DNA of 64,000 nucleotides, from assembly GCA_965285935.1 (NCBI GenBank), contig OZ260661.1:139066001-139130000 (forward strand). Direction: 5' to 3'. A program made the translations under genes and the position numbers. The notes under the pieces were generated by a model. It was given only the letters and a program-made list of their open reading frames with translations. It searched no databases and was not told where the DNA came from. Below, piece by piece: positions 52,422 through 56,021 of the stretch. This DNA is from Ophelia neglecta. Lineage: Eukaryota. Each line of letters opens with the position of its first letter. Within the stretch, counting starts at the first letter, position 1.

Positions 52422-55400
52422 AAGTTCCTTCGGAGCTCCCTCTGTCCAGAGTTCTCAACATAACAAAACAGACAGCGGTCGGATTTTCGGTGGCGTCTCT
52501 AATACAACGGGTGTCTCCAATAGACTGTTGGAAAACCCAAGAAGTACCACCTTGTTGAGCGGAGAGCCAAATTGCAAACCAACGAGTTCATTCAGAAACA
52601 TTTTCAATTTGGACTCGTCTGGTAAGGCCTAATATTGTTATTATTTATGTTCTATGTAAATGCTTGCATATTTTAGTTTCAGTGTTAAATGAAACATATA
52701 TTAATTTAATAAACTAATTGAAATGGAAGTGTGTTTAAAAAATTCAAATAATTAATAGCAAGTCATAATGAATTCTAATAATATGAATTATAATAATAAA
52801 CAAATCACTTAACAGTAACATCAAATCGCGTTCAATCTTTTACGAATTATCAGGAACGATCTTTAAGTTTTACCCTCTTTATGGGACTGACCTAACGACA
52901 ACGAATGTGTCGATTAAAACCCTTCATCAGTGTATAACGGCTATGCCGCTCTACGAGAACAAAAGCTTGGAAGAACTGAGGCTTGAGGACTATAACAAAG
53001 AAAGGCCAGTTTGCAGTTTGTCAACTTTTCAAAGTTTAACCACAGTACCTACTTTGCCGCTTTTATGAACATAAATGTTCACTTTGACGTTTATTACAAG
53101 CTCGTTTGATACTTTGACCGATGCATGCAAGTCTTTTTATTTTAAAGTTATAATAACATGAGCAATTAAACAGTGTCCAATTCCTTTTCAAATACTTTTT
53201 TTCTAAATAAATGAAAACGTCTGTCAACTCAAGCATAAATCAACGGTTTCGTTTTAGTCAATGGATAACTGGGATGACTTCTTAAATAGTAATTACAGTG
53301 AAACCTGTAAATTAAGACCACCTCGTCTGATTTTGGAGCTGGTCTGTTTAGACAGGTTGGTAAACATTGAAAGTATACATCAACATACTCATATTGGTGG
53401 TCTGAATTTACAGGTGGTCTTATTAGAGAGGTGGTCTTTAAGGCAGGTTTCACTGTACTACTTTATCCACATTATCATTAGATTTGTGTAAAAGGGACCA
53501 CAACACATTTAATAATTGAATACATTAGGGGTCATAAACGCAGCCGACTCACAAAACATTCAGTTCCCAGTAGACAATTGACAGAAGAAGTTGACATTAA
53601 ATTTTGCGCGATGTGAGTCAACTGTCAAAGAAAGGACTTTGTGGCCCTGGCAGTATAATAAATTTCGTTTCTGGGATTTTATGGAACAGGTAGCATAAAC
53701 CATTCATCATGTTACTGGGGTTTTCTCATGTTAAGTATATATTGTACTATCCTCATGACAACCACTTATTTTTTCATTTTAGGAAGGGTCCTCAGAGCGG
53801 AAGTACAAAAAGTCTGTTTGTAATTGGCAGAATGCCCGAGAAAGGTTGTAGTCGTGTGGGTCATAAAAAGTAAGTTTACTGACATTAATATTTATGACTT
53901 ATTCGTTATTACATTTTTTTGCTTGGTCGGGCAATTTTATCGAGAACTAAAAATATTTTGCAGAAATGATTAATCGGGGTACAACTATTTTAGCTTATTT
54001 GGATTTGGTTCCAAATACTGCCATTACTTAAGGGATGACCGCAAGTTAAAAGCGCCTGCCCAAGATGCGGTAAAACGAACAGAAAAAGGTATACATTTAG
54101 GGAATTTAATTCCACTATTGCGCTGTACACACGTTATTAAATTTTTTTTTTTTTGAAGTTCCATAGAAATTTGGGAACTATTTTGGCCTCTTTGTGATTA
54201 CTTTGAAATTCTTACCCTAATGGAACCTTTTTGAATCGTGGTAAACCTGATACGATTTTTGAGGGAAATCAAATTCACGGATCAAGTAACATAGCCTAAT
54301 TAATTCAATTAACGAGGTTGGATAGTTTTTGCTTCATACTCCTCTCCCCATTTCGAGTTACCAATATCTGCGGATGAATTGGTCTCCAAAACTACCTGTA
54401 AACCCTACCGAACCTGCTAAACACATGGCATTTTAATAAGCAACAAAAAATACTGGAAACAAACTTCTAATTGTTGAGCGATCTCATTCACTGACTGTAC
54501 TAGATAGTGTTCATTATAACCATTGGTCAACGAGGTTTTAAATGAATTTCATAATGTGAGTTTGGTGTTACGAGATTGACGATGAATACCCGATAATTGA
54601 ATGCTTCACACGTATAAGGTGCCACCCCTATTACAATCATTTACAAGGAACTACCGTTCTTGAATTAATTTTAAATCAATCTAATCACATTTTTCACTTT
54701 CATTATCACTCATGCACATTTCAGGAGTCGTACTAGACGAATAAAACGGCCTTGCGGGAAACAGGATAAAGAGTTAGCACTTGGATCCAAAGGTAATTCC
54801 AGGCCTATGTAAGAAATAATCGGTATAATATCAAAAGATATTTCTGGCCACCTAGTTTCTAGTTATATATTTATATATATTTATATAATGCTGACCCCTT
54901 GTCTGTTGTATTTACATGCTACATAGGGATTCACGAGGCCTCGGCAGTGAAACAGGATAAAGAGTCAGCACTTAGACCCAAAGGTAGTACTAGGCCTATG
55001 TAAGAAATAATCGATATAATATCAAAAGATATTTTGTGGCCACCTAGTTTCTATATTTTTATATTATCATATTTATATATATATATATATATATTTTTTT
55101 ATATATATTTATATAATGCTGACCCCCTGTCTGTTGTATTTACATGCTACATAGGGACTCACGAGGCCTCGGCTGTGAAACAGGATAAAGAGTCAGCACT
55201 TAGACCCAAAGGTAGTACTAGGCCTATGTAAGAAATAATCGATATAATATCAAAAGATATTTTGTGGCCACCTAGTTTCNNNNNNNNNNNNNNNNNNNNN
55301 NNNNNNNNNNNNNNNNNNNNNNNNNNNNNNNNNNNNNNNNNNNNNNNNNNNNNNNNNNNNNNNNNNNNNNNNNNNNNNNNNNNNNNNNNNNNNNNNNNNN

Positions 55401-56021
55401 NNNNNNNNNNNNNNNNNNNNNNNNNNNNNNNNNNNGTCCGTTGTATTTACAGGCTGCTTACGGACTCGCGAGGCCTCAGCATTGCTGGGATCGTGTGACT
55501 CTCGCCACCGCCCCTTATTCAGCCACAGAAACTTGGTAAGTCATACATTGTATATCTCAATCATAACAACATTCAGTATGTCAATGATTGTTAATTTTTA
55601 GTAGCTCCTCGATGTTTTGTTGATTTAAAATCAAATCATGATTTTTATCTATATGTTCACCAAATAAATAAAATACTTTTACACGCCGAAAATGAAATTA
55701 AAGGAGGTGATGATATTTCTTTTCCACTTGAGGATCATTTCCCCAAACATTTGTTTTTTCAAGACACAGCAGCAAGACACGGTGAGGCCAAAGCCATCTA
55801 AGTTCAATGGGTTTAAAGGATGCTACATTGCCCCGAAAGGTACTGTTGGTACACCGGTCAAAGAGAAAACAGTGACTGACGACAGACACTGGAAAGTCGA
55901 TTCCCGCGGGACAGACCCTGTCCATGGCTCTACAATGACCATCAACGTGTCAGATGCGAATGTTGAGAAGACCGTTCCACTCAATAGTAGCAAAACCATT
56001 AATAGGAACGGAAGTAAATAA
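52422..56021 (+). CDS. Nup98 N-terminus-derived protein (degenerate FG + GLEBS) with a repeated-exon C-terminus; start codon not located
   Basis: Phase-consistent exons are 52422-52621, 52854-53004 (GC donor), 53783-53869, 54725-54792, 54927-54983, 55155-55211, [gap], 55453-55535 and 55764-56021. The translation includes GTIFKFYPLYGTDLTTTNVSIKTLHQCITAMPLYENKSLEELRLEDYNKE-RKGPQ, compared with Nup98 GTTIKFNPPTGTD...STKHQCITAMKEYESKSLEELRLEDYQANRKGPQ. Confidence 0.65.
53296..53455. mobile_element. Tc1/pogo-type MITE
   Basis: TA|cagtgaaacctg ... caggtttcactg|TA. Confidence 0.85.
54758..55480 (+). repeat. Tandem exon-intron repeat (~190-230-bp units) running into an assembly gap
   Basis: gaaacaggataaagagt..cactt..cccaaag|gta...ggccacctagtttc occurs three times, with a diverged further unit after the gap. 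Confidence 0.9.
55280..55435. other. Assembly gap (156 N)
   Basis: Run of N. Confidence 1.

Follow-up and report, generated by a model that had tools for sequence, protein, structure and literature searches.

The window analyzed here is a 64,000-nucleotide stretch of the 762-Mb genome of Ophelia neglecta (C1:139066001-139130000). At positions 52422-56021 on its forward strand, within an array of DTX3L-like and PARP genes, it holds a gene that originated from the 5' half of the nucleoporin gene Nup98; judged by its exon order, the gene is a truncated paralog collinear with that half. It has lost the phenylalanine-glycine (FG) repeats, the autopeptidase domain and Nup96, and its GLEBS, the Rae1-binding segment of Nup98, has been kept by selection. 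A sequence-only reading had already placed a gene over this span, where eight exons do form one open frame of 319 codons; that reading missed a GC donor, a second GLEBS upstream and a sister gene elsewhere on C1, and no start exon has been found. The parts of the model are listed below in window coordinates, with z-scores from 300 shuffles for each exon match.

52422-52621, forward strand: exon with eroded FG repeats, homologous to coding exon 3 of Nup98 (phases 2-1; protein z 6.0, p 0.003; DNA z 7.4)
52854-53004, forward strand: main GLEBS exon, homologous to coding exon 4 of Nup98 (phases 1-2; z 29)
53005-53010, forward strand: non-canonical GC donor, AAG/GCCAGT, at an intron position inherited from Nup98, which has GT there
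53783-53869, forward strand: KGPQ exon, homologous to the first part of coding exon 5 of Nup98 (acceptor phase 2; protein z 6.7, p 0.003)
54725-54792, forward strand: basic low-complexity exon (phases 2-1; open frame, GT-AG; no significant Nup98 match)
54927-54983, forward strand: optional 57-nucleotide exon from a local tandem duplication (phases 1-1; weak acceptor; self-alignment over 54758-55279)
55155-55211, forward strand: second optional 57-nucleotide duplicate exon (phases 1-1; self-alignment)
55453-55535, forward strand: penultimate exon, probably what is left of the end of coding exon 8 of Nup98 (phases 1-0)
55764-56021, forward strand: last coding exon, with stop (phase 0; no recognizable homology, no Pfam match)

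The main GLEBS itself (52904-52993) scores 56.4 bits (E 3e-15) against PF21240, for which the curated cut-off is 27 bits, and can be aligned with the NUP98 peptide bound to Rae1 in PDB 3MMY (chain B; E 1e-11), in agreement with the near-perfect GLEBS described earlier. The homologs of Nup98 exons 3, 4 and 5 are collinear in the window and have the same acceptor phases; the first of them is 45 nucleotides shorter than Nup98 exon 3 with the frame kept. Of the 15 splice dinucleotides in the model, 14 are canonical, and a 156-base stretch of N (55280-55435) falls within one of its introns. A short high-copy repeat (53290-53460) is inserted in the intron after the GLEBS exon. A 1-nucleotide frameshift in the KGPQ exon, considered because of a 12-nucleotide match to exon 3 of the sister gene, was rejected, as that match is not significant (p 0.055).

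Outside the GLEBS, the features of a nucleoporin are largely gone. The 319-residue model contains 2 FG dipeptides, compared with 42 in the 662 residues of the same part of Nup98, and eroded FG remnants can be seen in exons 52422-52621 and 53783-53869. The autopeptidase domain (PF04096) is absent from the window, its matches in the genome lying on C12 only, and a tblastn search of the window with the first 662 residues of Nup98 gave matches at the GLEBS and KGPQ exons only. Both the erosion of the flanking FG repeats and the absence of an autoproteolytic domain and of Nup96, as first proposed, are thus borne out. With neither an FG domain nor an autopeptidase, the predicted product is not a nucleoporin, and on its exons the gene is one for a Nup98-derived GLEBS protein.

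The genome-wide profile search scored 19 candidates for PF21240, five of which exceed the cut-off: one on C12, two in the window (the main GLEBS at 52904 and a degenerate one at 49977) and two more on C1 (138178970 and 138179524). The C12 copy belongs to a full-length Nup98-Nup96, the intact gene that the sequence-only reading looked for elsewhere in the genome, with FG exons, the only autopeptidase matches in the genome (2 matches among 3 PF04096 candidates, both matches on this gene) and Nup96-like exons, so labelled from a reading of their translations. In the intron after its GLEBS exon (C12 ~70517030-70518740) lies a long array of ~59-nucleotide units, each of which copies the acceptor and first codons of the next exon, so that many decoy acceptors stand in a row. 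The remaining two copies belong to a sister gene, which lies in a paralogous cluster (cluster A) ~0.9 Mb upstream of the window, where paralogous DTX, EamA and KH-type genes adjoin it:

C1:138178390-138182562, cluster A: sister Nup98-derived gene with two GLEBS exons, 491 open codons and all splice sites GT-AG

In the sister gene, exons 8 and 9 of Nup98 have left clear remnants (z 13.7 and 14.6, respectively); the gene carries degenerate LEDY-type repeats and is a cleaner candidate for a live gene than the window copy. A tree of the five GLEBS copies, with supports of 36-71%, favors no particular order of events. By the same kind of search Rae1, located on C5 at 29.94 Mb, is single-copy (1 match among 4 candidates, with no duplicate found among them); one of its exons is 95% identical to that of Capitella teleta and 92% to those of Ridgeia and Saccoglossus.

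The sister gene also bears on the 3' end of the window model, which had been read as unrelated to Nup98. This holds for the last exon, with z-scores of 0.1 against Nup98 exon 9 and -0.2 against the last exon of the sister gene; a resemblance to Nup98 exon 9, suspected by eye, found no support (protein z 0.1, DNA z 0.3). It is doubtful for the penultimate exon: the sister gene has a matching exon (z 5.0, p 0.007), that sister exon resembles the final part of Nup98 exon 8 (z 13.7), and all three exons finish in phase 0. The penultimate exon is therefore probably Nup98-derived; because its direct match to Nup98 is not significant (z 1.2) and an off-position pair in the same table reached z 3.9, support for this assignment is moderate.

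To what extent the window GLEBS would still bind Rae1 can be judged from the residues it has kept. In a reference set of 16 distinct cores, drawn from 113 full-length and mostly vertebrate Nup98 sequences, 19 positions are invariant; the window core keeps 17 of these, including the EE pair, and the two changes are K193P and E194L (human numbering). The proline at the first of these positions is found in other natural GLEBS, including those of plant NUP98A-like proteins. The window GLEBS also lacks three residues near human 176-178, and human NUP98 181-224 is reported to be enough for RAE1 binding (PMC2133102). From this conservation, the window GLEBS likely binds Rae1 if expressed. In human cells, overexpression of free GLEBS displaces RAE1 and inhibits mRNA export (PMC2133102).

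The gene was originally proposed to act as a decoy or export regulator. The truncated paralog and its selectively kept GLEBS stand, and the word decoy needs amendment, in that the viral proteins contact Rae1: ORF10 touches the Rae1-Nup98 pair mainly via Rae1, and the ORF6 tails are described as making no contact with GLEBS (PMC7604486, PMC9376891). As these proteins bind Rae1 rather than GLEBS, the paralog could be bait only through captured Rae1.

Selection on the GLEBS is evident in every pair of copies. Over the 23-codon core, the ratio of nonsynonymous to synonymous differences (pN/pS) is 0.15-0.34 in all 10 pairs of the five copies (Fisher p 8e-7 to 0.007), including those of the degenerate window copy with the four others. 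Between the main window GLEBS and the first cluster-A copy, nonsynonymous divergence (dN) is 0.11 and synonymous divergence (dS) 0.86 (p 0.001), and a codon model restricted to the four paralog exons gives an omega of 0.27 (2 x delta lnL 24 versus omega 1), rather than the neutral divergence expected of a pseudogene fragment. Since the EamA paralogs of the clusters have a dN of 0.28 and a dS of 0.54, the GLEBS core is under tighter constraint than this neighbor. The flanking exons compared with Nup98 have a pN/pS of 0.57-0.59, that is, far weaker constraint, on locally aligned codons that bias pN low.

With a paralog dS of 0.5-0.9, the survival of the reading frame is informative as well. In a neutral-decay simulation, with indels assumed at a tenth of substitutions, the eight-exon frame was still open in 3% of runs after 0.03 substitutions per site and in 0.3% after 0.05, and the frame of the three homology-anchored exons in 0.7% after 0.1. 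As the frame so rarely outlasts such neutral change, the gene is alive or recently dead. The alleles differ at 25 sites in 3571 bases, with none in the two GLEBS exons versus 2.6 expected (P 0.064); in exon 52422-52621 they differ by one synonymous and one Val-to-Ile change, without indels. An open frame and purifying selection, as in a protein-coding gene, are both found, conditional on the GC donor.

GC-AG donors are a small functional minority. The join of the GLEBS exon to the KGPQ exon requires one at 53005, which is the same in three runs of one sample and outscores every other donor-like site in the exon tail (6.5 versus at most 4.5). Without it, translation would stop at 53066, leaving the GLEBS core intact, and an AATAAA lies at 53206. 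No start codon or 5' exon was found; when Nup98 exons 1-2 are aligned locally with the sequence 5' of each paralog, the scores do not rise above shuffles. It is here that a serious, if rather unlikely, alternative has to be weighed, namely that the window copy was once a functional gene and has died recently, in a cluster with birth-and-death turnover, with the cluster-A sister as the live copy. The GC donor, located at the one intron where Nup98 has GT, the missing 5' exon and a repeat inserted in the upstream element described below would then be read as early decay, and the tandem duplication debris at 54758-55279 and the absence of AATAAA within 2 kb 3' of the model stop (the first ATTAAA is at 57832) fit the same view. 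Against it stand 319 codons without stop or frameshift, the canonical state of the other 14 of 15 splice dinucleotides and the rank of the GC site among donors in the exon tail, and the simulation bounds the time since any death.

Upstream of the exon 3 homolog, the model may extend to a second GLEBS:

49873-50092, forward strand: candidate upstream exon with a second, degenerate GLEBS (AG acceptor phase 1, GT donor phase 2, in frame with 52422)

This GLEBS scores 27.6-29 bits against PF21240 and has a 2-residue insertion in its core. A GC donor first assigned to this exon was dropped in favor of the better GT donor at 50093, and a long similarity between the introns upstream of the exon 3 homologs disappeared under stricter scoring (34 versus a shuffle mean of 35). 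The missing start exon also suits a very improbable explanation, in which the exons are alternative 3' exons of the upstream kinase-WWE-PARP gene (31883-40149, forward strand) and the GLEBS is fused to it in cis. The two share a strand and GLEBS-PARP fusions are predicted elsewhere, but a stop closes the PARP exon after 40149, the PARP and GLEBS exons are separated by an open reading frame on the other strand, and the 5' neighbor of the cluster-A sister is on the opposite strand.

A Pfam scan of the window confirms that the GLEBS gene sits within a PARP/DTX cluster, as the sequence-only reading had it. In addition to the DTX3L-like genes listed here, its neighbors include PARP14-type RRM exons, two kinase exons, WWE and PARP exons and an EamA transporter:

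92-3448: DTX3L-like, RING and DTC domains
59559-61165: DTX3L-like, RING and DTC domains
62149-62652: DTX3L-like, Macro domain

The human relatives of these PARP/Deltex cluster genes are antiviral. The DTX array extends over at least 1.4 Mb of C1. Its third part (cluster B, C1:139490001-139570000) holds at least five DTX3L-like genes, several with Macro domains, and no GLEBS was found in the 80 kb examined there.

The link between the GLEBS gene and this cluster is drawn mainly from a shared non-coding element:

49407-49680, forward strand: conserved non-coding element, candidate promoter module, five copies on C1
49626-49637, forward strand: kappaB-like run inside the element
49664-49672, forward strand: STAT-type (gamma-activated sequence, GAS) site TTCCCAGAA inside the element

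The element lies ~3.0 kb 5' of the exon 3 homolog in both paralogs (score 50 versus a shuffle maximum of 41). Three more copies occur in cluster B (C1:139.49-139.57 Mb), two of them 1.2 and 2.7 kb 5' of DTX-type open reading frames and the third near the end of the DNA examined; identity is 51-57% between the window and cluster-A copies and between either of them and these three. We take TTCCCAGAA to be a STAT (GAS) site and the adjacent run to be kappaB-like. The former is exact in four of the five copies and occurs six times in all in 184 kb, and the latter was also a search pattern, so that its conservation is partly built in. A short high-copy repeat at ~49476-49571 splits the window element. 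In cluster A, the element is at the 5' end of an opposite-strand KH/DTX-type gene that stands head-to-head with the GLEBS gene, which recalls the common head-to-head, interferon-gamma-responsive bidirectional promoter of human PARP9/DTX3L (PMC11251020); in the window, no DTX-type gene that faces away from the element starts closer to it than ~24 kb. From its conservation and position, the element is a candidate regulatory or promoter module.

These observations also bear on a further explanation, which we regard as unlikely: a functional Rae1 binder with a non-immune role, such as germline, mitotic or developmental tuning, for which the DTX/PARP location is a bystander of one insertion. All of the selection evidence fits such a role equally, a single insertion accounts for both clusters, mitotic roles of Rae1 appear among literature titles, and truncated two-GLEBS Nup98-like predictions in lungfish and catfish lack enzyme domains. 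What speaks against it is that the window element adjoins the GLEBS gene and not the distant DTX-type 5' end, and that other lineages have predicted proteins in which GLEBS is joined to a PARP, Deltex or RING domain.

Other features of the array were recorded in passing. Kinase exons stand immediately 5' of RRM/KH/DTC-like exons or of WWE/PARP exons at window positions 19024-25075 (reverse strand) and 31883-40149 (forward strand), and the kinase-RRM order is seen again at C1:139524-139530 kb; kinase-DTX3L and kinase-PARP14 fusion genes are possible predictions at the two window sites. A 2.68-kb tandem duplication with 99.4% identity (window 243-2923 and 2919-5599) carries RING and DTC exons and is either recent or an assembly artefact. 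Between the PARP gene and the GLEBS gene lies a small membrane-protein-like gene without Pfam match (43849-44420, reverse strand), a possible second user of the upstream element.

GLEBS joined to enzyme domains is predicted in several other genomes. A search of 1.84 billion representative proteins gave 273 hits, of which the best 150 were listed and 117 of those Pfam-scanned (sets of 72, 42 and 3), with the other 33, mostly FG-rich, outside the scan. In the set of 72, whose members mostly have two or more GLEBS, 17 of the matches listed carry RING, Deltex or TRAF zinc finger domains: 15 have RING (13 over the curated cut-off), 2 the Deltex C-terminal domain (one of them also RING) and 1 TRAF zinc fingers. 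Among the matches listed for the set of 42, one protein (P0251) has the order GLEBS-Macro-KH-PARP. In the tunicate Styela clava, predictions include double GLEBS-CAP-Gly-PARP (LOC120326978) and double GLEBS-CAP-Gly-RING (LOC120327001) proteins, with XP_039249273 as the protein accession for GLEBS fused to PARP, and GLEBS-RING fusions are also named from a prawn and two plants. Fusions of GLEBS with PARP, RING, Macro-KH-PARP or Deltex C-terminal domains are seen in the predicted proteins P0004, P0132 (Styela clava), P0251, P0147 and P0179. The window gene has no close ortholog among the best 120 of 232 hits or the best 150 of 273, and among 398 proteins compared, the top matches to the main exon are 59-63% identical over 49-52 aligned positions. 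The titles and abstract openings searched describe no natural stand-alone GLEBS paralog or GLEBS-PARP/RING fusion, and the accessible part of a study of DTX3L-PARP9 evolution makes no mention of Nup98 (bioRxiv 10.64898/2026.04.23.720386).

Compared with known systems, the window gene shares the GLEBS core, flanking exons and intron phases of Nup98-Nup96 (PF21240, PDB 3MMY), and differs from it in the loss of FG repeats, autopeptidase and Nup96, in K193P and E194L, and in the 3-residue deletion, the GC donor and the second GLEBS upstream. Dominant-negative NUP98(150-224) and (181-224) fragments have been engineered (Pritchard et al., 1999, PMC2133102); by contrast, the window gene is natural, selected and ~280-320 codons long or more. 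The yeast Nup116, Nup100 and Nup145N likewise arose by duplication in the Nup98 family with uneven retention of GLEBS, but they keep their C-terminal domains and sit in the pore, whereas the window gene has kept GLEBS and lost the C-terminal anchor (bioRxiv 10.1101/2021.10.26.465796). With the PARP14-DTX3L-PARP9 locus the window shares clustered DTX3L-like and PARP14-like genes (PMC11251020). For that locus, the accessible text describes no Nup98-derived gene, and the window array has kinase-bearing members and many more copies. The closest parallel in domain content is Styela clava (LOC120326978, LOC120327001), where an FG-less GLEBS is linked with PARP or E3 domains as here, although in one fused protein, whereas the window has GLEBS and DTX/PARP as neighboring genes.

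Our preferred explanation, held tentatively and short of probable, is that the window gene is an old, FG-eroded, 3'-truncated Nup98 copy whose product would serve as a Rae1 sink or tether off the pore, induced with the neighboring DTX/PARP genes. What we infer is that the transcript is spliced at the GC donor and that the product binds Rae1, stays off the pore and is induced. If expressed, the product would likely bind Rae1 away from the nuclear pore, and it would likely be switched on together with its DTX/PARP neighbors; read-through without GC splicing would leave the GLEBS core complete. If human cells are a guide, free GLEBS would pull Rae1 off the pore and damp mRNA export. The captured Rae1 would offer, off the pore, the groove bound by viral export blockers, and would lie alongside co-induced ubiquitin and ADP-ribose enzymes.

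Several points weigh against this explanation. In the gene model, the downstream exons were chosen partly for their open frame, a GC donor mismatched at +3 is needed to keep that frame open, and a start exon was not found. K193P and E194L fall inside the region (NUP98 187-212) in which three engineered prolines abolish RAE1 binding (PMC2133102). The selection signal is an average over history and no proof that the gene is alive now, the simulation permits death within ~0.03 (eight exons) to 0.1 (three exons) substitutions per site, and the differences between alleles do not tell a live gene from a dead one. The location in DTX/PARP clusters is probably one historical event copied by segmental duplication, and the upstream element is also found 5' of DTX genes without an adjoining GLEBS gene. 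Finally, the fusion proteins are gene predictions, ranked by a repeat-favoring search without a background rate, and P0251 rests on a single 2176-base contig, for the junction of which no relative but itself was found among 129 candidates.

A broader and more doubtful proposal is that GLEBS is a recurrent immune module coupling Rae1 to ubiquitin and mono-ADP-ribose enzymes, by fusion in cis in tunicates and other eukaryotes and in trans here, through STAT/NF-kB-inducible stand-alone genes, the resulting complexes acting as off-pore bait or as an inducible shut-off of host mRNA export. Unrelated viruses block mRNA export at the Rae1-Nup98 pair. In the titles and abstract openings searched, no host counter-module built from Nup98 itself is described. 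Should the window copy turn out to have become a pseudogene recently, the question would still stand for its C1 sister and for the fusion proteins. A natural, selected, pore-less GLEBS gene, together with GLEBS-PARP/RING fusions elsewhere, makes a small testable system in which one peptide, one partner and one promoter element are directly assayable.

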